35,300 nt of DNA from Patescibacteria group bacterium (lineage in GTDB: Bacteria > Patescibacteriota > Minisyncoccia > UBA6257 > 02-FULL-45-10c), in NCBI GenBank assembly GCA_023474975.1, contig JAMCXE010000003.1, positions 1 to 35,300 on the forward strand, in the 5' to 3' direction. Position numbers and translations under genes: made by a program. Every line of letters begins with the position of its first letter. Positions within the stretch are counted from its first letter, which is position 1. Of the stretch, positions 8,036-34,377 are shown piece by piece. The notes under the pieces were generated by a model, which did not search any database, was not told the origin of the DNA, and was given only the letters and a program-made list of their open reading frames with translations.

Positions 8036-8294
8036 ACGCAAATTTTCTATCTTGTCGAAACCTGCGCGGCCGAGCGGGCACGGTGCTCCAGACAATCATT
8101 TTCTCAAAAACAGCATAGTTTTTCCCAGCGGAAAAACCTGCTTCTCTCTCGGCGCTTTATCGCAGACGAACCGTGCTAAAGCGCCCCTAAGATGTTCCTT
8201 AAAAAGGATTGTCTGGAGCGAGCGAGGCGAGGAAATAGTGAGCGAACCCGCCGGGGTGAGCAAAGTGGGTTGAGAAAAATAGAAAATTTGCGTT
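8035..8294. mobile_element. MITE-like, non-coding, GC-rich element with perfect 16-bp terminal inverted repeats
   Basis: aacgcaaattttctat at 8035-8050 is the exact reverse complement of atagaaaatttgcgtt at 8279-8294. A nested perfect 13-bp inverted repeat pairs gctccagacaatc (8085-8097) with gattgtctggagc (8207-8219). The interior is far more G+C-rich than the flanks. The element exactly fills the yebC-ruvC spacer. Confidence 0.55.
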
Positions 8295-8307
8295 ATATAA
8301 TTAAATT

Positions 8308-15350: not shown

Positions 15351-15422
15351 GGCTATAAAATTTAATTTTCAAGCCACTTCTGATTGAAGATTGGGATTTG
15401 AAAATTGAAAATTACAACAATT

Positions 15423-20533: not shown

Positions 20534-22249
20534 TTAAGCATTTTGCTGTTGGAGAATTTGCTCTGGTTTTGTAGTAACAATTTTATCTTCAAGATAAGAC
20601 GCTATTATTTTAATGGCAACATGATTAAGTCCGGCAAAGAAAAGTCCCTCACCTACCGCAGCTTCAAGCAGAAGATTTTTTTCGCCCTCTGTAAGTCCAA
20701 AAGATTTTATAATGAGATCTATCATTGTTGGCGACTGTTTCAATAAAAGCTGCAAAGAGGAATTGGTGATGATCGGGCGGCCATAGGGAGATTTAAGGAA
20801 GTCTTCCACGTCTTGTGTGATCGTGGTGACTCCAAGATAATATTTTCTGCATCTCTTTACTAAGCCAAACATAAAAGAGGCTCCGTCTTCGTATTTCATA
20901 AGCACCCACGCCTCATCTACTATCAGTACTCTTTTTTTGAGCTCTGCTCTAATCAAGCTCCAGATGAAATTCAAGACGATATACATAGCGATCGGCCTAA
21001 GCTCTTCTTCCAGGTCACGGATAGAAAAAACTATTAATCGATTTTTTATATCAACATTGGTTGGCTGATTGGTGAAACCGGCGTAGCTGCCTTGAGTATA
21101 TTTATAAAGGCGCTGCGCCATTGTTTTTCCTCCCTCCATGTTTTCCAAAATTTTTTGAAGATCTTCTAGAAGCGGCGGAATCGCTTTGCTAAAATCTTTA
21201 CCCGGAGCGATATCATGAGAGGCGTAGGTTTCGGAAATGGCTCTATCTAAAAGAGCATCTTCTTCTGGGGTAAGCTGGCCCATCATTAATTTTAACAATC
21301 CGGCAATATTAACAATGTGTGAACGCAAAACATCACTTGGATCTTCGTCTTTGGGTATGATCGGAAGGTCGAAGGGATTGATGTGGTGCTGGGAGGCCAG
21401 AGAGATCCTAAAATAACTTCCGCCAACGGAAGATGCCAGCGCTTCATATTCATTTTCCGGATCTATGATCAAGATATCAGTTCCCATCATAAGCAGACGC
21501 AATGCTTCGAGTTTGACTGCATAGCTTTTTCCGGCACCCGCTTTAGCAAAAACAACCATATTGGCATTCTCTAAAGAAAATCTATCAAAAACTATCATCG
21601 AATTATTACTTTCATTGATCCCATAAAGTATTCCGTTGTCGGAGGTAAGATCCGCTGAAGTGAATGGGAAGAATGATGATAGCGGTCCGGAATTGAGAGG
21701 ATTGTAAATTAATAAGCGATCTTGACCGAGCGGAATGGACGAGCTAAATCCTTCAGTTTGTTGAAATAATGCTGGTTTTATATAGACTAGTCGGCTTTCG
21801 AGCAGATTGGTTATTCTCCCTTCTAATTTGTTTAGTTGCTCTATCGTTTCAGCATAAATGGTGATATAGACGCTTACATTAAAAAGCTGTTCGCGCGCTT
21901 GTTGAAGCGAATCTCTTAGTCCCTCAATATCTTGAAATGCGGTTTCAAGCATTGGGTCTCTTACCACGCCCTTTTCTTGTTTTTCATATATTTGAGATTC
22001 GACCTGAGCCGCTTTCTTTCTAAGTTGTTTTAACGCTAGGTTTGTTTCTATAGGATGAACGAAGATAGATATATCTATAAGATCGGGCATATCTATGATT
22101 TGAGAGAACCAGCCAGTGGAAAGAAATCGCGGGTAAGAAAATATAAAAAGAGTTTTGGCTAGCTTGTCGCCAATTTTTATGAAATTTGAATTCACTTCCA
22201 CTGCCGCCGGGGCAATTATGTCTATTATATTTTTTGCTGTATCAGCCAT
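20534..22249 (-). CDS. virB4: VirB4/TrbE/CagE-like type IV secretion ATPase (short form)
   Basis: 571 aa. Walker A FAKAGAGKSYAVK, Walker B RVLIVDEAWVLM, and downstream GVTTITQD. The overall architecture is VirB4/AAA_10-like. Confidence 0.85.
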   Translation of the reverse strand: MADTAKNIIDIIAPAAVEVNSNFIKIGDKLAKTLFIFSYPRFLSTGWFSQIIDMPDLIDISIFVHPIETNLALKQLRKKAAQVESQIYEKQEKGVVRDPMLETAFQDIEGLRDSLQQAREQLFNVSVYITIYAETIEQLNKLEGRITNLLESRLVYIKPALFQQTEGFSSSIPLGQDRLLIYNPLNSGPLSSFFPFTSADLTSDNGILYGINESNNSMIVFDRFSLENANMVVFAKAGAGKSYAVKLEALRLLMMGTDILIIDPENEYEALASSVGGSYFRISLASQHHINPFDLPIIPKDEDPSDVLRSHIVNIAGLLKLMMGQLTPEEDALLDRAISETYASHDIAPGKDFSKAIPPLLEDLQKILENMEGGKTMAQRLYKYTQGSYAGFTNQPTNVDIKNRLIVFSIRDLEEELRPIAMYIVLNFIWSLIRAELKKRVLIVDEAWVLMKYEDGASFMFGLVKRCRKYYLGVTTITQDVEDFLKSPYGRPIITNSSLQLLLKQSPTMIDLIIKSFGLTEGEKNLLLEAAVGEGLFFAGLNHVAIKIIASYLEDKIVTTKPEQILQQQNA

Positions 22250-22270
22250 AATATTTTTTTAAATTCATGT

Positions 22271-22972
22271 TTATTGAGCAACCTTTTTCTCTATTGTGCT
22301 GGGATTGTATAGGTTGTAGAAAAGCTCGGAAAGTTCTTCGTCGTTTAATGGCACAACTCTGAGCCCGATCTGATTTAAGCCGTCGACGACCTCGCCGACC
22401 CTTTGATCGAGTTGTTCAAGATATTCTTTCTCCGTTTGTTTTTTTTCATCCCCCTCATTTTTTTTCTTTCCAAAGAGGCCGAATACGGCGCTCTTAAGGC
22501 CGGCGCCGGTATCTGAAACACGTATGGGATCTAGCGGGACAACCACAAAAAAGTTTTTGGACATTATTGCATTTTGAGAAACAAAGGATTTTATAAATTC
22601 CCTGTATTCAAATATTTGATTCTTCAAAAGCTCGTTGGTCTCTTGATTTTCTCTTTCCTCTACTTTTCTTAAATAATTGTCGATATTTATTTTTCTTGAA
22701 TGTATAAAAATTTGAAGAGTGAAATCAACGGAATTCAAAAAACCTTGAAAGGCGGAGGTTATCATTTCCTGCTCTTCGGCCGATTTGAGATCGAAGTTTA
22801 TTCCCGAAACAATGAGTATCCTCCTATATGCCCCACCCCTTAGCTTTATTACGCCGTTATTAATAGAATCGATATTAACGAATTGTTGTGTAGCGAAAGA
22901 CGGTTCTTTTGATTCTTGTATGTTAGGCATATGTTTAAGTATACAATTGTTTAATTCTTTATTTATAATCAA
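22271..22972 (-). CDS. Hypothetical soluble protein resembling a VirB4 N-terminal module
   Basis: 233 aa. The pattern FVNIDSINNGVIKLRGGAYRRILIVSGINFDLKSAEEQEMITSAFQGFLNSVDFTLQIFIHS parallels the N-terminus of the adjacent ATPase. The track start is TTG 22972; ATG at 22930 is an alternative. Confidence 0.5.
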   Translation of the reverse strand: MIINKELNNCILKHMPNIQESKEPSFATQQFVNIDSINNGVIKLRGGAYRRILIVSGINFDLKSAEEQEMITSAFQGFLNSVDFTLQIFIHSRKINIDNYLRKVEERENQETNELLKNQIFEYREFIKSFVSQNAIMSKNFFVVVPLDPIRVSDTGAGLKSAVFGLFGKKKNEGDEKKQTEKEYLEQLDQRVGEVVDGLNQIGLRVVPLNDEELSELFYNLYNPSTIEKKVAQ

Positions 22973-23471
22973 CTCTTCGGGCCATCTCTTTCTCTCCGGT
23001 TATTTTTCTGAAAACCTCGTATTTTTCCTGATGCGATCTGAATTGATCAAAAATAGCCGGCTGAGTCGTTTTTTCTCTAGCTGGTATGGGGGTTTTTGAA
23101 GTAAGAAGTTTTTGCCATATATCGTTCAATGGATTTGCGCCTTCTTTTATCTGTGCGGGCTCTTTCGTTTTTTCTATTTTTTGGCCGGGGGCGGCAGTTT
23201 TTTTCCAAAGATAAAATTTAGGCTTCCAGAAATAACCAATAGCTGCGCTAACTATTTTAGGCAGTGGAATGCCGTTTATTTTTATGAAGGCCAAAGATAT
23301 TGTAGCTGTATTTATCAGCACTATCGAAAAGGCCCAAAGCCACAAATTAAAGAAGAAGAATAAGAAAAAAGAAAGGCCGGCGCCGATCGTGATGTAGACG
23401 AATTGCTTAAGGGTTAGCGGCCCGATTATCTTGTCTTCTGTGTCTATAAATTGAGGGACTTGAAACTGCAT
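22959..23471 (-). CDS. PrgI/TcpE-family (VirB3-like) membrane protein
   Basis: MQFQVPQFIDTEDKIIGPLTLKQFVYITIGAGLSFFLFFFF.. followed by a second TM helix, which is the characteristic PrgI-family N-terminus. I prefer ATG 23471 over the track's TTG 23483. Confidence 0.6.
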   Translation of the reverse strand: MQFQVPQFIDTEDKIIGPLTLKQFVYITIGAGLSFFLFFFFNLWLWAFSIVLINTATISLAFIKINGIPLPKIVSAAIGYFWKPKFYLWKKTAAPGQKIEKTKEPAQIKEGANPLNDIWQKLLTSKTPIPAREKTTQPAIFDQFRSHQEKYEVFRKITGEKEMARRVDYK

Positions 23472-23507
23472 ATGTTTGACCAACGACTAACAACTGACGA
23501 CTTACGA

Positions 23508-23864
23508 CTAATGAGTTAATAATTTTTTCTTAAAACCACCCAATTGACTAGAGATACTTGATAACTTTACAAAAAGTATATCAAACTCTGCTTTGGTTAT
23601 AAAACCACTATCTTTTAATATATCTGGCGCGGCTAGTGTTTCACTAACGGAGCCTAGTGCTATTTCTATATATCTGTTGAGTTCCTTGTCAGATGTTTTA
23701 CCACTACCCTCGGCGATATTCAGAACAATTGAAAGAGCTGACCGTATTAATTGACTACCTATCTCGTATCTATATTCTTTTGGTGTTTTTTAACTATGTA
23801 TAATTGCTAGCACTTCTTTAGAATCTGTATAAGCTTTCCATTTCAAAAATCTGATTTTTTCCAT
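23508..23864 (-). pseudogene. Four-helix-bundle protein (23S rRNA intervening-sequence protein family) interrupted by an in-frame TAA
   Basis: My translation reads MEKIRFLKWKAYTDSKEVLAIIHS*KTPKEYRYEIGSQLIRSALSIVLNIAEGSGKTSDKELNRYIEIALGSVSETLAAPDILKDSGFITKAEFDILFVKLSSISSQLGGFKKKLLTH. The NIAEGSG..S.KE...Y..IALGS signature is present. The TAA is codon 25 (23790-23792), in the same frame on both sides. Confidence 0.6.
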
Positions 23865-23871
23865 TTTGTCG

Positions 23872-24966
23872 TTAGTTGTTGGTTGTAGGTTGTTTGTTGC
23901 TTCTAAGATCAATCGTATTTCCGTTGAGTTTGGTAAACGTGGATAAATTGATGTAGTCTTCTTTTTTGGGTTCTGGTTTTTGGGGCGCTCCAGATGGGGT
24001 CAGCGGAGTTTTGAAATTGCTGTAATGGACGGTTCTTATTGGCTCGGATTTAGCTGTTTGAGTTGATTCGCTTGGTTTGAGCTCGGAGATCGGTTTTTCA
24101 AATATTTGTGATGGCGGTATTGCTGGATTGGGTGTAACTTTTTCGCTATTGGGTTGAGCGGGTGCAATCGGTTGCCGAGCTTCGATCACGGGTTTGGGAT
24201 TGATAAAAACGGGCATGCTGAATTTTTTTGCGCCCTCTTTTTGCTCGGTTTCTATTTTAATGGATACCGGTTTAACAACATTTGGTTTATTTATGAGCGA
24301 GGGTTCTACTTTTAGGTTCAATGATATTGATTCTTTAGTGATTTGAGGGATCGTGGGTTTTACCGGCTCTGTTTTTGTTTGAATGATAAATGGGGTTTCG
24401 GCAATTGGCGCAGTCGGTTGTGCGGATTTTATTGGTTGTGGATTTATAGATGCGACTCCTGCGCCCATGGTGGGAATTTTTGGTGCGATCGGAGTGGCCG
24501 GCTGAGTCGGCATTGAAGACAGCGGCTTAGCTCCTGAAAATTCCGGATGAATATCGTTTGCTGTCGGGGCGTTGTTTTTTTCAAGATTTACGATTTTGGG
24601 CAATACCTCTTCTTGCGGTTCCTCGGCAATTTTTGGCGGATTATAAATTTTAGCCAGATCGTCTTTAAGGTTGTTAAATAACTTTTGTTTAAGCTCTATC
24701 TCAATGAAATTGGCTTTTTGCATATCAATATCGAAATATTGGTGCAGCTCCGAAGCGATCTCCTCCGGCTTTGTATAGCCCAAAAAAACTTCACCTACCA
24801 GCAAAGCAACATCTTTTACTTTATCCTCGGAAATACTGTAGTCTCGGCAAACACTAGAAATGAGCTGGACGTTTTTGTCGGCCAGCATTTCTTTTTTTAA
24901 TTTTTCTGGAAGCGCTTCAAACCTTTTTTGCGCTTCTTGTTTTTCGGATTCGTAGTTGTTCGTCAT
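23872..24966 (-). CDS. Hypothetical protein with a folded N-terminal domain (about 110 aa) and a long Pro-rich low-complexity tail
   Basis: 364 aa with no TM segment. The tail is rich in P, T, K and I repeats (PKIAEEPQEE.. PTQPATPIAPKIPT.. PVKPTIPQ..). Confidence 0.55.
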   Translation of the reverse strand: MTNNYESEKQEAQKRFEALPEKLKKEMLADKNVQLISSVCRDYSISEDKVKDVALLVGEVFLGYTKPEEIASELHQYFDIDMQKANFIEIELKQKLFNNLKDDLAKIYNPPKIAEEPQEEVLPKIVNLEKNNAPTANDIHPEFSGAKPLSSMPTQPATPIAPKIPTMGAGVASINPQPIKSAQPTAPIAETPFIIQTKTEPVKPTIPQITKESISLNLKVEPSLINKPNVVKPVSIKIETEQKEGAKKFSMPVFINPKPVIEARQPIAPAQPNSEKVTPNPAIPPSQIFEKPISELKPSESTQTAKSEPIRTVHYSNFKTPLTPSGAPQKPEPKKEDYINLSTFTKLNGNTIDLRSNKQPTTNN

Positions 24967-24988
24967 TTGCTATTCCGCTAGTAATTAA

Positions 24989-27019
24989 TTATTTTCCTTC
25001 TTCCTGTTTAGCTTTTGTTTCTTTCATGAATTTTTTTAGTTCTTTTATATCCTTATCTGAGGCATTGTTAGATTTAGATTTTTTAATAAGTTCCTCGCTT
25101 TCGGAGATCTTTTTATGAAGATCGTTAACTTTTTGCAATGTATTTTCTTTAGAATTTTTTACCAGCCTTGTTAGATTGATAATGCGTTCTTGTGCGATTC
25201 TCTTTTCTTCCGGGTTCGTTATTTTAGCTATTTTAGCATTTAGTTCCGCTAGGTCTTTTTCGAATATAGCCGATCTGTCACCTCCACCCGCGTTGCCCCG
25301 AGCTTCTTTTTGTTGGCTTGCGGAAATGATCGTTTGTTGATTTATGCTTATTGGCTGATCTATCGCCGTTTTAGTTGCTCTGACATTCTCTAGTGCTTTG
25401 GCTATACCGTCTCTTTCTTGTTCTAGTTTTGACAAATCTGAACCTTGAGGATTTTTACGCGCAGCATCTATCTCTAGCATTTTCTCCTCCCATTTCTTAT
25501 TAAGCTCCCCTTCCTCTTCTGTTAATGCCGACTTCATTGTTAATTTTTCTTTCTCCGCGAATTCTTTTTCTGGACCAGCTTGCTTTGTTTTTTCATTTTC
25601 TGTACGCTCATTTTCTTTCTCTTTATATTCCTTCTCTTCTTTTAAGCGTAATTTTCTAGAGTTCCAGCCTAAGCCGGCGCCGATTTCTTCTGATGTGGCG
25701 GTATAAATTCCGCTAAGGCCACCATATGTTTTTTGGAAGTCTTCTGAGGATTTGGCGACTTGTCTAAGCGGCCTTGTCGCGCTTCTGACCAAGCCATACT
25801 TTGAATTTTTATACTTTTCACCAAATTCTCCAACTTTCTTAGCAGCAAATCCAAGACCAGTAAGACCTATTGCTGTAGACGCGGTTCCTTTTAAGATGCC
25901 ATTTATTGCTCCGGTTGCAGCATTAGTAGTCCATTTTCCCGCAATGCCAGAACCCTCTTCGGCTTTTTTAATACCATACATCAGTATCGCAACCACCATG
26001 ATCATAGAACCGATGTTCGGACCCATACTTTGTATCACGTGACTCGGGTCGTCAACCAAAGCTTTTTGCATATTTGGTGTGTCCACAATGCCTTGTATTG
26101 CGGTATAGGATTTAAGCGCTATGTAAATGTAAAATCCGGCGATTGGTCCGAAGAATGTTTGCTGTAAAAATTTTTTAGACCAATCTGACCAGCCACTTCC
26201 TCCTATTACCCAACCTATTATTGCAGCCGGTAAAGTTATTAAAAGAATGCCGATAATCACATATCTCATCAAGAACATTGCCGCTAATCCGAACATGGTG
26301 ATGGCGCCAACTGCCGTAATTATATCGGCAAATATCAGGCTTGCTAATACCTGTACTGTGGCTGCGCCAAAATTAAGAAGGGTAGAGTTAGGATCGAGCG
26401 TTGGAGGCTGCAATACTTTATACATTTGCATTGCGCTAGACAGCGCTTGAGCGACGCCGCCGTTACCGGATTGACTATTGAAGGAAGCTAGGAAGAAATT
26501 TGTAAGCATTCCGGCGAAATCAAGAACTACAGTTGCCAGGAGTAAGCTAAAGTTAATAAGAAGAGCCGCTATTATAAGCTTAGGTAGAGCTTTTTTAACT
26601 TGCAGTGAACCGGTATTTAAAATAGTTTCAAATGCAATGATTATTATTAAAAATACAAAGGCGAGATTGGCAATATCCCTGGTTATCGGCCAGCCGATCT
26701 GAACTGCAGGATTATCAACAATATTAGAATTTAATTCCAAAACCCAGTTTAATATTATTCCGCCTAAAAAAAGAGCGAGATGGAAAAAATACCCCAGAAC
26801 ATACAATAGTAAGGTGAGTATCCAGGATACCGCTGTCATTATGCTTTTGCCTGGATTTGTAATGAAATCTAGCGCGCTGGGTGTCGATGGCGCGTTTGAT
26901 GCCACCTGAGTAGCAGATGACGCAGCCTGCTGGGCGTGGGCAAAACTATGCGGTATTAATAAAAACACCGCCACTAATAGTCCGACAAAAATTATTTTCC
27001 TTATGTCTATTTTTTTCAT
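24989..27019 (-). CDS. VirB6/TrbL-like polytopic membrane protein with a long Lys/Glu-rich coiled-coil C-terminal tail
   Basis: 676 aa. Signal peptide (..HSFAHAQQ), about 8 hydrophobic helices over residues 60-400 or so, then about 230 aa of charged coiled coil. The assignment rests on topology and context only. Confidence 0.5.
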   Translation of the reverse strand: MKKIDIRKIIFVGLLVAVFLLIPHSFAHAQQAASSATQVASNAPSTPSALDFITNPGKSIMTAVSWILTLLLYVLGYFFHLALFLGGIILNWVLELNSNIVDNPAVQIGWPITRDIANLAFVFLIIIIAFETILNTGSLQVKKALPKLIIAALLINFSLLLATVVLDFAGMLTNFFLASFNSQSGNGGVAQALSSAMQMYKVLQPPTLDPNSTLLNFGAATVQVLASLIFADIITAVGAITMFGLAAMFLMRYVIIGILLITLPAAIIGWVIGGSGWSDWSKKFLQQTFFGPIAGFYIYIALKSYTAIQGIVDTPNMQKALVDDPSHVIQSMGPNIGSMIMVVAILMYGIKKAEEGSGIAGKWTTNAATGAINGILKGTASTAIGLTGLGFAAKKVGEFGEKYKNSKYGLVRSATRPLRQVAKSSEDFQKTYGGLSGIYTATSEEIGAGLGWNSRKLRLKEEKEYKEKENERTENEKTKQAGPEKEFAEKEKLTMKSALTEEEGELNKKWEEKMLEIDAARKNPQGSDLSKLEQERDGIAKALENVRATKTAIDQPISINQQTIISASQQKEARGNAGGGDRSAIFEKDLAELNAKIAKITNPEEKRIAQERIINLTRLVKNSKENTLQKVNDLHKKISESEELIKKSKSNNASDKDIKELKKFMKETKAKQEEGK

Positions 27020-27042
27020 TTTCTAAGACTGGTTCCAATTAT

Positions 27043-28647
27043 TTATGGTGTAGTAGACGGAGCGGGCGTCATATAGTTGGCACAGGCAGAAAGAATGTCT
27101 TGGTATCCGCCGTTATCAGAATTGGTTTGTAGAATACTATTAGAATAATTTTGTATGCTGGAAAGTTCGGTTTGTGATGTGGCTAGGGCTTGTGTTGCTT
27201 TTTGCTGATCCATGGTTCCGTTAGTTACTAAATTTGAATAAGTCTTAGTCATTAGAGCCTCGCTGGTACTATCTGTTGGATCCATAGCATTAAATTGAGC
27301 TTGAGTGCTTTGTATTATAGCAATATCGTTTTGAACATCAGAAAGCTCTGATTGTAGTCCGTCTAGTGTCGGCTGAATAACATTATTGATCGTATCGGAT
27401 ATTATATTGGAACTGGTTAGATTGGAAATTTGTAATGTCTCTCCGTTGGGAAACGCTTTGGAAAGATCACAGGTAAGGAAATCGTTGAGCGCGGTCTTGA
27501 TAGCAGACTCAGTATTTATCGATTGATTTATGTTGGTTGCGGTGTTTTGTTTTATGCCCAGAACGGTATTAAAGTTAGAATTGAATAATGTGCGATCATT
27601 TTTAAAAATAAGAGAATTGATCTGGGCGAAACTTGCGTTTTGATAATCGGCATAAGCGGTATTGGTATTATCGCTATCTTTGTATCCTAATGCTCCGGCA
27701 ATTCCGTTCATCGCTAATAAGCTATATCGGTATATTACCGCATCGGCTAATGCTCCAATATATCCCGCAACGTCGTCAGCGGTTAATATCCCCGCAACTT
27801 TATTTGTATCGGTATACGTATTCCAAACCGACTGCGCTATTTGATTTCCGGGTGTAAGTGTTCGGCATACCTTCTGGTGAGTTTGAGGATCGATTTTGCA
27901 TTGCTCTTGAGGTTTGTATCCGGCACTGATCTGAGCGTCTATAGTTTTGGACTTCATAACATCGGCAAGAGTTGTTTCTTGTTTATCTTCTGTTATTAGC
28001 GTCGTGCCAAAAAAGTTATTTTGCGGCTCCCATAGGGTGTTATAGGTAAGCCATCTCCCCTTGCTTTGTTTGTCAAAGCTTTTGAAAAGATCGTCTATAT
28101 TTCCAACGATAGTGTTTAATGTGCAAGTTACATCGGCTCCGGGCTGCTGTTGAGGACTGAACAAGCTTAATGCTACGTTAACTTTTATCGGAGAGCAAAG
28201 AAATGGCAATGTTTGCTGAGCGAGCATTCCAACTGCCTCTTGCCCCGCTTGTTGAAAAAAAGCACCCCAATCGGAAACAATCGGACCGCCCTTACCCTCA
28301 AATCCGCCATTTTTGATCCATTCAGCCGCTGCATTGGCTAGCCTATCTAGTACTAATTTTTTTAAAGCTTGACCAGCCACTTGTTTTAAAATAGTAAGAA
28401 AACTTTGTGTTTTATCGCTTGCTGCCTTAGCTGCCACCGCCGCATTGGCGCCCGCCGAAGCCGCGGTGCTTATATTTATAGCTGCAATGTCAATTGCCAT
28501 AGGGCTCATAGGAGATTCAAATGTTGTTGTGATATCCCCGACTCCCAATACTGCGTAAGCTTTTTTGGGCATAAATAATCCCGGACCGAATAATAGGCTT
28601 GTCAGTACTAGCCCAACAACTATTTTTTTATAAAAATTTAAAGACAT
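27043..28647 (-). CDS. Large secreted hypothetical protein
   Basis: 534 aa with a signal peptide (..MPKKAYAV). I recognise no domain. Starts 3 nt after the upstream gene. Confidence 0.55.
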   Translation of the reverse strand: MSLNFYKKIVVGLVLTSLLFGPGLFMPKKAYAVLGVGDITTTFESPMSPMAIDIAAINISTAASAGANAAVAAKAASDKTQSFLTILKQVAGQALKKLVLDRLANAAAEWIKNGGFEGKGGPIVSDWGAFFQQAGQEAVGMLAQQTLPFLCSPIKVNVALSLFSPQQQPGADVTCTLNTIVGNIDDLFKSFDKQSKGRWLTYNTLWEPQNNFFGTTLITEDKQETTLADVMKSKTIDAQISAGYKPQEQCKIDPQTHQKVCRTLTPGNQIAQSVWNTYTDTNKVAGILTADDVAGYIGALADAVIYRYSLLAMNGIAGALGYKDSDNTNTAYADYQNASFAQINSLIFKNDRTLFNSNFNTVLGIKQNTATNINQSINTESAIKTALNDFLTCDLSKAFPNGETLQISNLTSSNIISDTINNVIQPTLDGLQSELSDVQNDIAIIQSTQAQFNAMDPTDSTSEALMTKTYSNLVTNGTMDQQKATQALATSQTELSSIQNYSNSILQTNSDNGGYQDILSACANYMTPAPSTTP

Positions 28648-28650
28648 TTT

Positions 28651-29421
28651 TTATTTAATCAATTGATTATTTTTAATGAATGTATTTTTGTCATTTTTTA
28701 AAACATTATATTGCTGGTAGACATTTGATAGTTCATTAACCGCCAGACTGGCTACGAAAGGATCTTGGTCCATATTGGCCAGGGCTTGATATATATTTTT
28801 TTCAGCGGTTAGTAGCTCTATTTCTTTTTTATCTATAGCTAGAAGTTCCGCCGGAACGGTTAAATTATAAAAATCTTTTATGGTTGAATTATAAACATTG
28901 ACCATCTGGATAAAATCGGAAGATTTAATATTTTCTACAGAAGAAAGAAGGCTTTTTGGTAATTTTTGGCCATTACTTAATATTATTGCATTGAAAGATA
29001 AAAAATAGTTTACAAGAGCATCTTTGCTGTTATCATTGGATATTTTAATGTCAGAATCGTTAATTGTTGGGTATAAACTTTTTGGGTCAAAATTTTTCTG
29101 CGCTTCGGCGAATAGATCATTGGCGAGATTTTCGGGTTTTGGTATAGCAACGTAATTTTGCCCATTCATTGTTATCGCCCCGTTAGGATTGACCGATGTC
29201 ATTTCGGCGGCGATCTTTTTTGCAAAAACCTCGCTTAAATTTACAGTTGAAGATGCTTGGGAGAGGGATATTTCCGTTCCGACCGGATTATTATTTACTA
29301 TATCAAGGCTGCTATTATTCGCTTGGGGGGCGGCCGGAGCAGAGCCGGAAACTATAAAATAAGCTCCGCCAAATCCGAGCCCTAAAAATAAAATAGTAAT
29401 GAGTATCTTTGATCGGCTCAT
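28651..29421 (-). CDS. N-terminally membrane-anchored hypothetical protein; first gene of the T4SS-like cluster
   Basis: 256 aa with TM anchor ILITILFLGLGFGGAYFIV. I recognise no domain. Confidence 0.55.
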   Translation of the reverse strand: MSRSKILITILFLGLGFGGAYFIVSGSAPAAPQANNSSLDIVNNNPVGTEISLSQASSTVNLSEVFAKKIAAEMTSVNPNGAITMNGQNYVAIPKPENLANDLFAEAQKNFDPKSLYPTINDSDIKISNDNSKDALVNYFLSFNAIILSNGQKLPKSLLSSVENIKSSDFIQMVNVYNSTIKDFYNLTVPAELLAIDKKEIELLTAEKNIYQALANMDQDPFVASLAVNELSNVYQQYNVLKNDKNTFIKNNQLIK

Positions 29422-29482: not shown

Positions 29483-30511
29483 TTATAGATCCTTAATAAT
29501 TGATGCAAGTTTTAAGATATCGTTTACGGATAAGTTTTGCGGTCTGGAGTTTAGCGGCAGATCTAATGATCCAAGAGCTTTTTCTATTTGTTCTTTCGGA
29601 ATATCCGATCCGGATCTGAGATTGTTTAGCAATGTTTTTCTTGGTTGCTTGAAGATCGTGTGAATTAGTTTGTAATAGTTTTCTATTTCTTTTGCGAGAT
29701 TCTCATTTTTTATCTTGTCATTGCGAGAAGTCTGCGGCGCGGCAATCTCATGATGCATAGATCGCTTCGCTTTGCTCGCAATGACAGATTGGAGACTGTT
29801 AATTTCTTTTTTGGTGATTAGTCTAATAACGGCAGAATCAACATCTGGCGCGGGTTCGAAATCGGTAGGCTTCAGTTTAAAAATAATTTCTGGTTCTGCC
29901 CAGAATTGAGTTGCCGCCGCAAGCAAATTCATTCCGCTATAAACTGTTTTTATTCTGTCATTGCGAGGTCTCGCCCGTAGGGCTGCGACCGAGGGAGTCT
30001 GCGACGCGGCAATCTCATTAAGTCCAGATTGCTTCGGCAGCACTCGCAATGACGGTTTTGGTTGAGCGGCGATTCTTTCGGCTACTTCTTTTTGGACCAT
30101 TATAACGGTCAATTTTGGTTTGTATTCAAGCTCGCTAATAATTCTGAGTAATTTTCCGGTTATGTAATATGGGATATTGCCGACAATATTAAATTTTAAA
30201 TTTTTAATTTTTAATTCCTGAACGATTTTTGGCAGAACCTTTAACGCGTCGCCTTCAATGATTTCAACACCGTTTAGTTTTAAATTTTGAACTTTATTTT
30301 TCAGCTCGGTTGCCAATTCCCGATCTTTTTCTATGGCAATTATTTTAAAATTAGAAAGTGTAAGCTTAAAGCTTTCTGCCATAGGCAGGGTAAGCGCTCC
30401 TTTGCCGGGACCGATCTCGATAATTACATCGCCCTCCTCGATATTCAAGGCCGCGACTATTTTAGAAATAGCAACTTTATTTTTCAAGAAGTGTTGACCG
30501 AGTTTTTGCAT
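29483..30511 (-). CDS. rsmA: 16S rRNA (adenine1518/1519-N6)-dimethyltransferase RsmA/KsgA carrying two in-frame repeat insertions
   Basis: LGQHFLKNKVAISKIV, IIEIGPGKGALT, FNIVGNIPYYIT, MVQKEVAERI and FEPAPDVDSAVIRL. At 342 aa it is longer than is usual for this family because of two GC-rich inserts. Confidence 0.85.
   Translation of the reverse strand: MQKLGQHFLKNKVAISKIVAALNIEEGDVIIEIGPGKGALTLPMAESFKLTLSNFKIIAIEKDRELATELKNKVQNLKLNGVEIIEGDALKVLPKIVQELKIKNLKFNIVGNIPYYITGKLLRIISELEYKPKLTVIMVQKEVAERIAAQPKPSLRVLPKQSGLNEIAASQTPSVAALRARPRNDRIKTVYSGMNLLAAATQFWAEPEIIFKLKPTDFEPAPDVDSAVIRLITKKEINSLQSVIASKAKRSMHHEIAAPQTSRNDKIKNENLAKEIENYYKLIHTIFKQPRKTLLNNLRSGSDIPKEQIEKALGSLDLPLNSRPQNLSVNDILKLASIIKDL
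29717..29785. repeat. 69-bp GTCATTGCGAG...CTCGCAATGAC palindromic element inside the rsmA CDS
   Basis: Ends at 29717-29727 and 29775-29785. 69 bp equals 23 codons. Translated as ..VIASKAKRSMHHEIAAPQTSRND.. Confidence 0.75.
29957..30053. repeat. 97-bp GTCATTGCGAG...CTCGCAATGAC palindromic element inside the rsmA CDS
   Basis: Ends at 29957-29967 and 30043-30053. Shares the core agtctgcgNcgcggcaatctcat with the 69-bp copy. Translated as ..SLRVLPKQSGLNEIAASQTPSVAALRARPRND.. Confidence 0.75.
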
Positions 30512-30584: not shown

Positions 30585-32510
30585 TTACTCTATATATATC
30601 GTTTCATCGTCCCAGTCGGCGTTCCTTTCTCCATAACTGGAAATTTTTGTAAATTCTATCACATCGCCCGGCAGCTCGCCTAAAAACCTAGAAGGTAAAT
30701 TATAGAAACTTATAAATAATTTTTTCTTGGCGCGAGTCATTGCAACGTACATGAGCCGTCTTTCTTCCTCAATGTCTTCGGCTTTAAAAAAAGACTGCTC
30801 GTGCGGAAGTAGGCCTTCGTTGCAGCCGATCAGAAAAACATTTTCGAATTCCAGCCCCTTTGCCGCATGAATAGTCATTAATTTTACAGCATTCTTCTGG
30901 AGCTTGGGTTTGTCGTCTGATGTTGAGGTTAGGGCTACCTCCTCTAAAAATTTGTAAGGATCTTCATATTGCGAAGCAAAATTGATCAACTCCTTTATAT
31001 TTTCCATTCTTTCGGAAGGATTTTTAAAATTTTTGACAAGATAGCTTGAGTAGTCGGTATTTTCTATGAAATAGCTTATGATCTGAACCAGGGTTAGTTC
31101 CTTGGTTAATTCGGGAAGGCTGGCTGTTATTGTCCGGCTCTTTATTTTTCCCAAACTTTTTTCTAGACGTTCCGCGCTGGCGGCGTCTTTAGGGTTATAG
31201 GCATAGCGAAGTCCGGCAATAATATCTTTGATCTCTTTTCGAGCATAAAATTTAAGTCCGCCATATATTTCATAAGGGATCTTGTTGCGGATAAAAACTT
31301 GTTCCACCGCGCGTGATTGCGCGTTGGTCCTGTAGAGTATCCCCATTTCTCCGGTTTGGGCGCCAGCCCTTACCATTTCTAATATCTTTCCGCAAATACC
31401 CCAAGCTTCTTCGTCGGCATTTTCATAGGCGGAAAGTTTTATTTGCTCCCCTTCGCCGTTTTTTGTCCACAAGTCTTTTGGCTTTTGCTGTTTATTGTTC
31501 TTGATGAGCTCGGAAGAGGCAGAAATTATCATTGCCGTTGAACGATAATTTTGCTCCAATTTTATTATTTTGGCTTTCGGCCAATCGAGTTCAAAATTCA
31601 AGAAATTTCTAAAGTCGGATCCTCTGAACTTATAAATGCTTTGCGCGTCATCTCCGATCGCAAAGATATTTTGATGTTTTTCGGCCAGTAATTTTATAAG
31701 CTGATATTGCGCTGTATTGATATCTTGATATTCGTCTATCAAAATATATTTATATTTTTCTCTATACTTCTCCAGAACCCTCGGTTCGTTTTTAAAAAGT
31801 TGAACAGTCTTGGTAATGAGATCATCAAAATCGAAGGCATTGCTTTTTTTGAGAACATCTTCATATTCTTCGTAAATCGCCGATATCTTTGCTTCGTGCG
31901 CGTTTTCAGAAATTTCATCCATATCTTTCAGTTCGTTTTTTATCTCCGAGATCTTACTCAAAATAGATATAGGATTGAATCTATCTTTGGAAAGCGCCTT
32001 TTCTTTTATTATTTTTTTGACGATGCTCAAAGAATCTTCACTGTCAAAGATAGTGAAATATTTTGTTCGTCCAAAAGCCCCGTTTGGCGAATCGGCCTCG
32101 TTCTTTAATATTTTTGCGCCGAAGGAATGAAATGTGCCAACAAACAGCTTATTTTCAAGGGTTTGTGATTCGTATGATTTTTCCGAAACCTCCGCAGCCG
32201 CATCGGCATGGTCCGCTCGTTGTATTTTTTCCGAGCGGCGATGCGGCGAGGACGAGCGAGTTTCGGGCTGGCGAAACGAAGCGTGTTGAGGTAAAACATG
32301 CGAATTAAAAACCCGGCTTCGCATCTCATTTGCCGCTTTATTGGTAAATGTTATGGCAACGATATTTTCCGGAGCTATTCCGGATCCTAGTAAATGAATT
32401 AAGCGACTGACCAGGGTTTTGGTTTTTCCGGATCCGGCCCCGGCCGCGATCAGTAATGGACCCCGATCGTGTTGCACGGCTTCAAGTTGCTTGTCATTTA
32501 AATTATCCAT
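30585..32510 (-). CDS. UvrD/PcrA/Rep-family ATP-dependent DNA helicase carrying an in-frame GC-rich insertion
   Basis: 641 aa. AGAGSGKTKTL, AITFTNKAANEM, GTFHSFG, ILIDEYQDIN, GDDAQSIYKFRG, QNYRST, MTIHAAKGLEF and VAMTRAKKKL. Confidence 0.9.
   Translation of the reverse strand: MDNLNDKQLEAVQHDRGPLLIAAGAGSGKTKTLVSRLIHLLGSGIAPENIVAITFTNKAANEMRSRVFNSHVLPQHASFRQPETRSSSPHRRSEKIQRADHADAAAEVSEKSYESQTLENKLFVGTFHSFGAKILKNEADSPNGAFGRTKYFTIFDSEDSLSIVKKIIKEKALSKDRFNPISILSKISEIKNELKDMDEISENAHEAKISAIYEEYEDVLKKSNAFDFDDLITKTVQLFKNEPRVLEKYREKYKYILIDEYQDINTAQYQLIKLLAEKHQNIFAIGDDAQSIYKFRGSDFRNFLNFELDWPKAKIIKLEQNYRSTAMIISASSELIKNNKQQKPKDLWTKNGEGEQIKLSAYENADEEAWGICGKILEMVRAGAQTGEMGILYRTNAQSRAVEQVFIRNKIPYEIYGGLKFYARKEIKDIIAGLRYAYNPKDAASAERLEKSLGKIKSRTITASLPELTKELTLVQIISYFIENTDYSSYLVKNFKNPSERMENIKELINFASQYEDPYKFLEEVALTSTSDDKPKLQKNAVKLMTIHAAKGLEFENVFLIGCNEGLLPHEQSFFKAEDIEEERRLMYVAMTRAKKKLFISFYNLPSRFLGELPGDVIEFTKISSYGERNADWDDETIYIE
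32182..32267. repeat. GC-rich nested palindrome inside the helicase CDS
   Basis: ccgaaac...gccgcatcg (32183-32205) pairs with cgatgcggc...gtttcgg (32239-32266). The central hairpin is ccgctcg-ttgtattttttc-cgagcgg. Confidence 0.65.
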
Positions 32511-32547
32511 ATTAGCTATTAATAAAATTTAAAGTATAAAAATCTAG

Positions 32548-32659
32548 TTAATTTTCAATTTCAAAGCTCAATTTTCAATGAAATCACAATGAATCAATTT
32601 ACAAACAAAAACTAGAAAATTAAAGCATTGAAAATTGGTAATTGGTGATTGAAAATTAA
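32548..32659. repeat. AT-rich compound palindrome built from AATTTTCAAT / ATTGAAAATT words in the divergent helicase/M23 promoter region
   Basis: ttaattttcaat (32548-32559) and aattttcaatg (32570-32580) mirror cattgaaaatt (32626-32636) and attgaaaattaa (32648-32659). Confidence 0.6.
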
Positions 32660-32724
32660 TTTTATGGTATTTTGTATATATTATTGATATCTTACGACAA
32701 CAATTAAATAAAGCAAAGGATTTG

Positions 32725-34020: not shown

Positions 34021-34060
34021 TTAGTGAGTGAACTAAACATTATTCTTGTGAGCGACGTCT

Positions 34061-34228
34061 GTCATTGCGAGGCAATCGAAGCAATCTCATAATGTCCGTC
34101 ATTGCGAGCATAGCGAAGCAATCCAGATTGCCACGACTTTATACTGAGCGAAGCCGAATGTACTTTATACTGAGCGAAGCCGAATGTACTTTATACTGAG
34201 CGAAGCCGAATGTACTTCTCGTAATGAC
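34061..34228. repeat. Composite GTCATTGCGAG-family element with an internal tandem expansion
   Basis: GTCATTGCGAG at 34061-34071 and 34098-34108. agattgccacg at about 34124-34134. Closing ctcgtaatgac at 34218-34228. Confidence 0.65.
34138..34215. repeat. Perfect 26-bp tandem repeat, 3 copies (tttatactgagcgaagccgaatgtac)
   Basis: Three identical head-to-tail copies read directly from the sequence, with no spacers. Confidence 0.9.
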
Positions 34229-34321
34229 GAAGCAGAGATGTTTTGCGTTAATGTTTCACAAAAGCGTTAAACATTTGTTTGTTGTTAAACATTTTTATGA
34301 ATATGACATATAAAAAGTTAA

Positions 34322-34377
34322 AGCCCCGCATGTTGTGCGGGGCTTGACCATTTGTTTCACACCGTGAAACAAATGGT
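34322..34377 (-). terminator. Two tandem hairpins downstream of the 34411-35064 gene
   Basis: agccccgca-tgttg-tgcggggct at 34322-34344, followed on the minus strand by ttaacttttta. ccatttgtttcac-accg-gtgaaacaaatgg at 34348-34377. Confidence 0.55.

Follow-up and report, generated by a model that had tools for sequence, protein, structure and literature searches.

A G+C-rich palindromic insert carried in frame by a PcrA/UvrD-type helicase gene of a Patescibacteria bacterium

How does a G+C-rich palindrome come to lie, in frame, within an A+T-rich helicase gene, and is it the peptide or the nucleic acid that is kept there? The question is raised by a stretch of 35,300 nucleotides (nt), here called the window. 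It belongs to contig JAMCXE010000003.1 of a Patescibacteria group bacterium (assembly GCA_023474975.1). A sequence-only reading of this DNA had noticed a helicase of the PcrA/UvrD type with a loop of about 55 residues between motifs Ia and Ib. It assigned the loop to a nested palindrome at 32151-32309 and saw there a second palindromic element in a coding region. With moderate confidence, we favor a passenger hairpin similar to the Rickettsia palindromic elements (RPE). It would sit in the center of a hairpin that was already there, the protein tolerating it as a disordered loop, and would be kept symmetrical and recently exchanged or inserted.

The host gene encodes a superfamily 1 (SF1) helicase of 641 amino acids (aa) and is located at 30585..32510 of the minus strand. 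The open reading frame (ORF), Pfam, the Protein Data Bank (PDB), and AlphaFold were used to define it, and all the core motifs are present. Pfam recognizes UvrD-helicase (2e-82) and UvrD_C (1e-63). The PDB sequence search matched PcrA, UvrD, and Rep, with PcrA as the best solved relative (1pjr, E 2e-127). PcrA aligned with helicase residues 3-68 and 122-449. Between TFTNKAANEMRSRV and FVGTFHS there are 53 residues, compared with 9 in PcrA at the same place. We also compared 120 helicase orthologues, all of them Patescibacteria or Candidate Phyla Radiation (CPR) by the names given in the source. In most of them, the loop from motif Ia (TFTNKAA) to motif Ib (TFHS) measures approximately 10-17 residues. 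The expansion of the loop, as first proposed, is thus real. The invariant motif residues (Walker A, Ia/Ib/II/III etc.) are all conserved in an alignment of 100 sequences.

The extra sequence is an insertion because one orthologue keeps the uninterrupted site. This orthologue, P0029, is encoded at locus L002 (GCA_018896875.1). Its loop peptide, ...RRRVFDS-YESQTLENKLFVGTFHS, corresponds to the flanks of the window without the middle. In the DNA, the empty site consists of GGGTTTTTGAT-TC-ATACGAATCACAAACCC, and its flanks are identical to those of the window at 49 of 51 nt. Here the window presents 126 extra nt. So does L001, a Joint Genome Institute (JGI) metagenome locus from a separate study, which encodes the helicase P0002. 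The L001 insert is 93% identical to that of the window and occupies the same codon.

The gap against L002 sets the limits of the insert at 32177..32302 (minus strand). They can be moved by up to 2 nt, owing to a direct repeat of TC. The alignment of the window, L001, and L002 places its upstream copy (gene sense) at 32302..32303 and the downstream copy at 32176..32177, both on the minus strand. L002 has a single TC where the insert carriers have two. The true insert, defined by the empty site, is narrower than the range first outlined.

The 126 nt make 42 codons, residues 71-112 (HVLPQHASFRQPETRSSSPHRRSEKIQRADHADAAAEVSEKS), with 18 CpG. Their G+C content is 57%, compared with 39.6% in the gene without the insert and 38.8% in the window. 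The length is a multiple of three, the frame contains no stop codon, and the helicase ORF runs through. Shadow ORFs cross the insert on the plus strand (81 and 51 aa) and on the minus strand (74 aa). Both the G+C-rich composition in A+T-rich coding sequence and the shadow ORFs on both strands had been pointed out before, and both hold. The nested stems proposed from the letters (ccgaaac/gtttcgg, gccgcatcg/cgatgcggc, and ccgctcg/cgagcgg) are all exact.

The central hairpin spans 32197..32247. Its 9-bp stem, GCCGCATCG/CGATGCGGC (arms 32197-32205/32239-32247), surrounds a 7-bp stem, CCGCTCG/CGAGCGG (arms 32213-32219/32232-32238), with a loop of 12 nt. A third exact stem, of 7 bp, pairs 32183-32189 with 32260-32266. 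A small hairpin at 32260..32277 (minus strand) is formed by GTTTCG/CGAAAC around the loop CCAGCC. L001 has GTTTTG/CAAAAC instead, and this change is compensatory. The covariance models R1 and R2 describe a G+C-rich two-hairpin core at 32183..32283 (minus strand). It consists of the small GTTTCG-CCAGCC-CGAAAC hairpin, followed by a long bulged hairpin with the 3' bulge ACCATGC. Around the core lies an outer palindrome (inverted repeat I1), whose arms have 22 nt each and are 82% complementary. One arm (32159..32180) combines the host codons E-S-Q-T with the end of the insert, and the other (32293..32314) the host codons R-V-F-N-S with its start. Two-arm stem patterns of this kind were expected 0.00 times in shuffles of the window.

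The uninterrupted site of L002 is also a palindrome, with arms GGGTTTTTGATTC/GAATCACAAACCC of 13 nt and a loop of 4 nt. The loop DNA of this locus folds significantly (z -3.5). The insert sits at the center of this older, shorter hairpin, and its first bases lengthen the old stem. Folding of the insert exceeds that of dinucleotide shuffles to a real but moderate extent: z is -2.65 for RNA (121 nt) and -2.28 for DNA. For the 177-nt loop it is -2.8, with 4 of 300 shuffles as good. The orthologous copy in L001 folds with z -5.0. The palindrome has a minimum free energy of -44 to -56 kcal/mol, and in raw stability the insert hairpin is the third strongest 130-nt locus of the 35-kb window. Folding is better for the antisense than for the sense strand, which singles out neither as the transcribed one.

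The AlphaFold model of the helicase, made from a 100-sequence alignment, has a mean predicted local distance difference test score (pLDDT) of 84. Residues 76-116 have a pLDDT below 50 and form a coil without secondary structure; in the 42-residue insert segment the values are 30-41. In the model, the helix of motif Ia (57-69) precedes this disordered loop, and the strand of motif Ib (123-126) follows it. The model superposes on DNA-bound PcrA/UvrD with a template modeling (TM) score of about 0.81 (Foldseek: 3pjr/2is1/4c30, TM 0.81-0.82). According to the model, the four-subdomain PcrA/UvrD fold is intact despite the insert, and the added peptide lies at the protein surface, a point for which a structural check had been suggested. 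No Pfam domain was found within the insert. It would then be translated as a disordered surface loop of 42 residues, which the helicase seems to tolerate.

The comparison of the two carriers separates the peptide from the hairpin. The window and L001 inserts differ at 9 of 126 positions, and all nine differences are nonsynonymous (among them R to C in two places, as well as S to L and H to P). Outside the insert, the gene shows 228 synonymous and 92 nonsynonymous codon differences (Fisher p 2e-5 versus the insert). The 171-nt palindrome has 14 differences, which break one pair where about 5.5 were expected, using the structure predicted from the window alone. The probability of one broken pair or fewer is 0.006, and 0.002 with a CpG-aware model. 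Four of the 14 differences form two compensatory pairs, CG to UA. One is in the small hairpin and the other in the 9-bp stem (GCATTG/CAATGC in L001). Every change in the insert is nonsynonymous, and the pairs are spared; therefore, there is no constraint on the peptide, whereas the hairpin is retained. It is the DNA or RNA, and not the peptide, that is constrained or young.

Youth has to be considered because the unpaired positions are also about 90% identical between the carriers. Structural selection alone cannot explain this similarity. Third positions are identical at 41 of 43 sites in the insert and at 52% elsewhere (p 5e-10). The insert segment has to be a good deal younger than the divergence of the two carrier genes. 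It belongs to a young patch at 32148..32327 (minus strand, codons ~62-121). Within the patch, the third positions are nearly identical between the window and L001, and also in L002, minus the insert. Past it, third-position identity falls to the background within a few codons, and elsewhere the gene approaches saturation. Together with roughly 50 nt of flanking sequence, the insert is far younger than the gene around it.

The insert does not follow the relatedness of the helicases. With the loop masked, the protein most similar to that of the window (P0001) is P0003, encoded at L003, which is 87% identical and has no insert. P0002, with the insert, is 84% identical. The L002 clade is only about 70% identical to the window helicase, despite the shared flanks. 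P0030, a sister of P0029 with 88% identity, has an unrelated loop. The simplest reading of these alignments would be a short-patch lateral exchange of the loop cassette, with crossovers in the conserved codons of motifs Ia and Ib. Alternatively, there may have been repeated site-specific insertion into the hairpin.

An element that spreads might be met again elsewhere, and further copies of the unit had been suggested as a check. No second copy with at least 80% identity was found in the window or nine related loci, using blastn and patterns. Likewise, the two whole assemblies of runs X1 and X2 contain no other copy at this level, and only the helicase contig was matched. These runs come from a mine-tailings metagenome, and both assemblies contain this genome. 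As a positive control, the two palindromic inserts of the neighboring KsgA gene were searched for by the same procedure. They matched 17 and 10 contigs, some with a depth in the thousands.

For the insert peptide, there were 0 matches with E <=0.001 among 1.84 billion protein-cluster representatives, read exhaustively. A peptide-derived search of viral, metagenome, and genome collections gave no confirmed locus; it also missed the window and L001, and lineage coverage was poor. We did not count a word-indexed protein search (six-frame, flank-plus-insert peptide queries) that missed P0001 and P0002 as well. A local phmmer run with the insert peptide scores these two at E 2e-14 and 1e-6. Rfam has no match to the insert, even at E <=10. 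An exact-pattern DNA scan of genome and metagenome collections returned 46 matches, which we attribute to chance: all are in genomes of 58-76% G+C, and none extends past the pattern. Plasmid and phage blastn matches of 25-33 nt were also regarded as chance.

The 101-nt core sequences of the window and of L001 served to build a covariance model, which found a diverged relative. The model was run without filters and has a self-score of 130 bits. It matched 8112..8200 of the plus strand with 29.4 bits (cmsearch, E 1.5e-5; 60% identity, 49/81). The next best score was 17.5 bits in 262 kb of searched strands. The relative has the same architecture: a small hairpin, GTTTyG/CrAAAC, with the loop CCAGCG, then the same long stem. 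Its 7-nt 3' bulge is ACCGTGC, compared with ACCATGC in the insert. In an alignment fitted to the model, both partners differ in 8 of 29 pairs, and 97.6% of cells are still paired. A local alignment by sequence also ranks 8112-8200 as the best match in the window, yet 16 of 1000 shuffles were as good.

The relative is enclosed in the yebC-ruvC spacer (8036..8307), a multi-level nested palindrome of 272 nt recognized by its folds and flanking genes. This spacer folds with z -5.0 on the plus strand and -7.1 on the minus strand, and it is single-copy at >=80% identity in the source runs. In both family members, the core is centered in an outer palindrome specific to the locus. A second covariance model including 8112-8200 found no further member in the sequence searched. 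We conclude that the insert family exists, because the covariance model finds a copy that conserves the structure, but that it is low-copy and old. The second palindromic element of the sequence-only reading therefore survives in part. It is an in-frame, palindromic insertion, unrelated to the GTCATTGCGAG family described below; as a repeated mobile family it has no copy at >=80% identity and one relative at 60%.

Weaker covariance matches were rejected as relatives and correspond to a conserved two-hairpin structure. They are located at 34311-34376 (minus strand), at L001 2498-2563, and at L007 1392-1455. Each presents GTTTCAC..GTGAAAC followed by a G+C hairpin with a U run after it. In the three genomes, this terminator-like or 3' element lies just 3' of an orthologous gene of 217-244 aa.

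The loop that holds the insert is one of four hotspots of extra sequence in these helicases, located after residues 74, 200, 384/385, and 538-541. The Ia-Ib loop has extra sequence in 24 of the 120 orthologues. Its DNA folds significantly in L002, L006, and L007, and not in L003, L005, and L008. Some hotspot peptides reflect multi-copy palindromes (NPVR...SNGV, VIASASEAIS, and FLDSRFRGNDR). At L055 (1122-3053, encoding P0101), an A+T-rich palindrome of about 66 nt is in frame at three sites, including the Ia-Ib loop, with the peptide TNKRIRKFE..SLFAD. The L001 helicase has a further in-frame insert of 24 residues after residue 541 (INPH...RYGVG). P0114, otherwise an ordinary orthologue, carries an intein-like insertion of 363 residues after the residue equivalent to 290 (Pfam intein/Hint families).

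The adjacent KsgA/RsmA gene (29483..30511, minus strand) encodes 342 aa, compared with 256-266 aa in L002, L003, and L008. It is longer because of two in-frame palindromic inserts, at ~29717-29785 and ~29957-30053, with arms GTCATTGCGAG/CTCGCAATGAC. The 11-mer GTCATTGCGAG occurs 13 times in the window (0.43 expected), and parts of the KsgA inserts have a very high copy number in the source metagenome. KsgA orthologues have other palindrome-derived inserts, at the same or different sites. In-frame palindromic DNA is common in this group, and the helicase insert is an unusual example with a nearly unique sequence.

We propose that the 126 nt may be hairpin-forming DNA without protein selection, akin to RPE and to in-frame MITEs (miniature transposable elements with inverted repeats). 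They would have been inserted at the center of a short, pre-existing palindrome in the codons of the Ia-Ib loop. This loop is a site that tolerates additions: many orthologues have other inserts there. The symmetry could be kept by arm-to-arm correction (template switching, hairpin mismatch repair) or by selection on the DNA or RNA structure. The loop cassette could have been exchanged laterally between related lineages, with recombination anchored in the conserved motif codons. Otherwise, the core may have been inserted site-specifically into the hairpin.

Several observations weigh against this explanation. There is no near-identical second copy anywhere we searched, so the behavior of a classical repeated element is unsupported. 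No transposase or mobilizing gene was found in the 20 scanned ORFs of at least 110 aa, a scan that leaves seven large ORFs (20534-29421) outside. A small GIY-YIG gene near the helicase in relatives, considered as a possible nuclease partner, is absent from the window. The 2-bp TC duplication can be chance or microhomology. That the event was an insertion, and not a precise deletion in L002 and L003, is suggested by the loop lengths of the other orthologues. The relative at 8112-8200 is a single 29-bit match with a roughly calibrated E-value and a modest significance at the sequence level. Only two carriers are known, the covariation statistics are thin, and CpG transitions dominate the changes. 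Finally, the helicase gene matched no RNA-seq run among those searched, which bears on the retention and translation of the segment.

A palindrome could also have grown in place, by fold-back or template-switch errors at a quasi-palindrome and without any mobile element. The insert is exactly at the center of a palindrome with 13-bp arms that exists without it in L002. Its start, TTCGCATG, is complementary to the host ATGCGAA upstream (I7) and to CATACGAA downstream (I1), and the old stem is therefore extended. Arm-to-arm templating would give compensatory changes without selection, lineages differ in the palindrome at this loop, and the insert is single-copy at >=80% identity. However, the 100-nt G+C-rich core has no nearby template, and its composition is foreign to the gene. 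A structurally matching relative lies 24 kb away in a different sequence context, and the same loop in orthologues holds palindromes that are demonstrably multi-copy. We consider growth in place rather unlikely. A selected function of the nucleic acid, with the coding loop as a mere host of a cis-acting RNA or DNA structure, is also improbable. The structure might be an element for mRNA stability or translation pausing, an antisense RNA, or a protein-binding hairpin or cruciform. Such a function would agree with the pair-preserving substitutions, the two compensatory pairs, the conservation at all three codon positions, and the hairpins kept at this loop by several orthologues. It would also agree with the helicase copy and 8112-8200 conserving the loop CCAGCG and the bulge ACCRTGC while 8 of 29 pairs covary. 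Nevertheless, the pair count comes from a three-sequence alignment fitted to the model, and the similarity of the unpaired positions fits youth better. The better folding of the antisense strand leaves no strand preference, and Rfam is silent at E <=10. Neither in nor beside the insert is there a promoter-like or terminator-like signal. The closest orthologue (P0003/L003) lacks the insert, and its loop is unfolded (z +1.1); the folds of L005 and L008 are not significant either.

An adaptive protein insertion, in which the 42 residues are a functional new loop (for example, partner-binding or regulatory), is highly unlikely. The ORF has stayed open in two lineages, and the extra length found at this loop in 24 of 120 orthologues could be useful. 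Against it, each of the 9 substitutions that distinguish the carriers alters an amino acid, and the closest relative lacks the insert. The segment has a pLDDT of 30-41 and no secondary structure, and there is no similar peptide among the 1.84 billion representatives. Moreover, the loop sequences are unrelated between lineages and mirror palindromic DNA. Assembly errors can also create palindromes, and the window is a metagenomic contig. Yet a 24-kb contig of run X1 and a separate contig of X2 cover the insert at normal depth, with 0 differences and no joints reported. Runs X1-X4 yielded no contig of a variant lacking the insert, and the unrelated JGI sample (L001) has the 93% identical insert at the same codon. 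The chance of an artefact or chimera is negligible. A bolder version of the insertion hypothesis, which we hold as doubtful speculation, would be that Patescibacteria have a class of "homing hairpins", so far undescribed and lacking an enzyme of their own. Their targets would be the centers of existing hairpins, in genes and spacers, and they would spread, along with a short flank, from one lineage to another between orthologous genes. The unpaired motifs (CCAGCG, ACCRTGC) would be recognized in trans by a protein of the host or of a mobile element. If so, certain surface loops of housekeeping proteins would be hypervariable "landing pads".

Other features of the window complete the picture of the region. 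The spacer at 32511-32721, from which the helicase and LysM/M23 peptidase genes diverge, has 18-24% G+C and short A+T-rich inverted repeats (ttgaaaatt/aattttcaa). Similar units are present at 15383-15414. At 34057-34228, there is a cluster of GTCATTGCGAG units, then three exact tandem repeats of 26 nt (34136-34217). The segment 11774-14509 and its neighbors contain dnaN and dnaA; yidC and an R3H (jag-like) gene are close by. Because of these four genes, the window is probably the region of the chromosomal origin. Further genes of the window are ruvB, yebC, ruvC, one of PBP1 type, and genes similar to those of type IV secretion systems (T4SS) or pili.

To our knowledge, in-frame palindromic DNA in housekeeping genes is textbook material only for Rickettsia, and our literature search turned up no report of RPE-like elements in CPR. 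The phenomenon is now seen in CPR, at recurrent hotspots of an essential-type helicase and in the adjacent KsgA. The present case separates three things: a peptide that can vary freely, a hairpin that is retained, and an insert much younger than the gene. If this is general, it bears on how reduced genomes gain new protein loops. It also bears on why CPR proteins often exceed their homologues in length and carry odd low-complexity segments. Gene annotation would be affected too, since palindromes yield shadow ORFs and odd peptide repeats. The locus offers a concrete place to study insertion directed at hairpins, or lateral exchange of short patches, among uncultivated bacteria.

Compared with known systems, the insert shares single traits with several. 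As in intein and intron homing accompanied by co-conversion of the flanks, it occupies the same site in orthologues of non-sister lineages, with unusually similar flanks. However, it has no endonuclease or splicing domain, comprises 42 codons only, and gives no Rfam intron match. In the Ripley model, quasi-palindrome template-switch mutagenesis uses local templates to perfect or lengthen palindromes that already exist. It explains concerted changes of the two arms and extension of the stem without selection, but its outcome would not be a 100-nt core of foreign composition.

Repetitive extragenic palindromes (REPs) are found in tens to hundreds of copies and are associated with a REP-associated tyrosine transposase (RAYT). 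IS1397 and similar insertion sequences (IS) target the hairpin loops of such palindromic units (REPs and bacterial interspersed mosaic elements, BIME). Like REP/BIME, the helicase locus presents G+C-rich imperfect hairpins with conserved unpaired bases, and palindromic units are nested centrally. In contrast, the insert is within a coding sequence and single-copy at >=80% identity, and no RAYT transposase was found among the 20 scanned ORFs.

Intragenic bacterial MITEs (ERIC, BOX, and Nezha-type) are short, non-autonomous, and hairpin-forming, and they can fuse in frame with ORFs (PMC10969869). The helicase insert shares with them its short length, its hairpin, and the in-frame fusion with the host ORF. 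By definition, MITEs have terminal inverted repeats that match a parent IS, are accompanied by a fixed-length target-site duplication, and occur in multiple copies (PMC10969869). Here, no parent IS is seen, the only direct repeat is the 2-bp TC, and the insert is nearly single-copy. Its outer inverted arms, which one would compare with terminal repeats, are largely host codons and are also present in the empty site.

The closest resemblance is with RPE, palindromic DNA in frame in unrelated housekeeping genes (Ogata et al. 2000, summarized in PMC10969869). RPEs form families with many recognizable copies per genome and a conserved encoded peptide (PMC10969869). The helicase insert has no copies at >=80% identity and one relative at 60%. 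Its peptide is not conserved, and the relative at 8112-8200, being intergenic, brings no family peptide. It also differs in being G+C-rich in an A+T-rich genome, in lying inside an older palindrome, in being younger than its host gene, and in the phylum, Patescibacteria/CPR. We do not file the insert as an RPE, because repeated copies were not found in the sequence searched and the family peptide is not conserved. Yet it works like one. It is a palindrome of ~100-150 bp in frame, it leaves the host ORF open, it occupies a site where the fold is predicted to accept a peptide, it carries no transposase, and its host genome is small and reduced.

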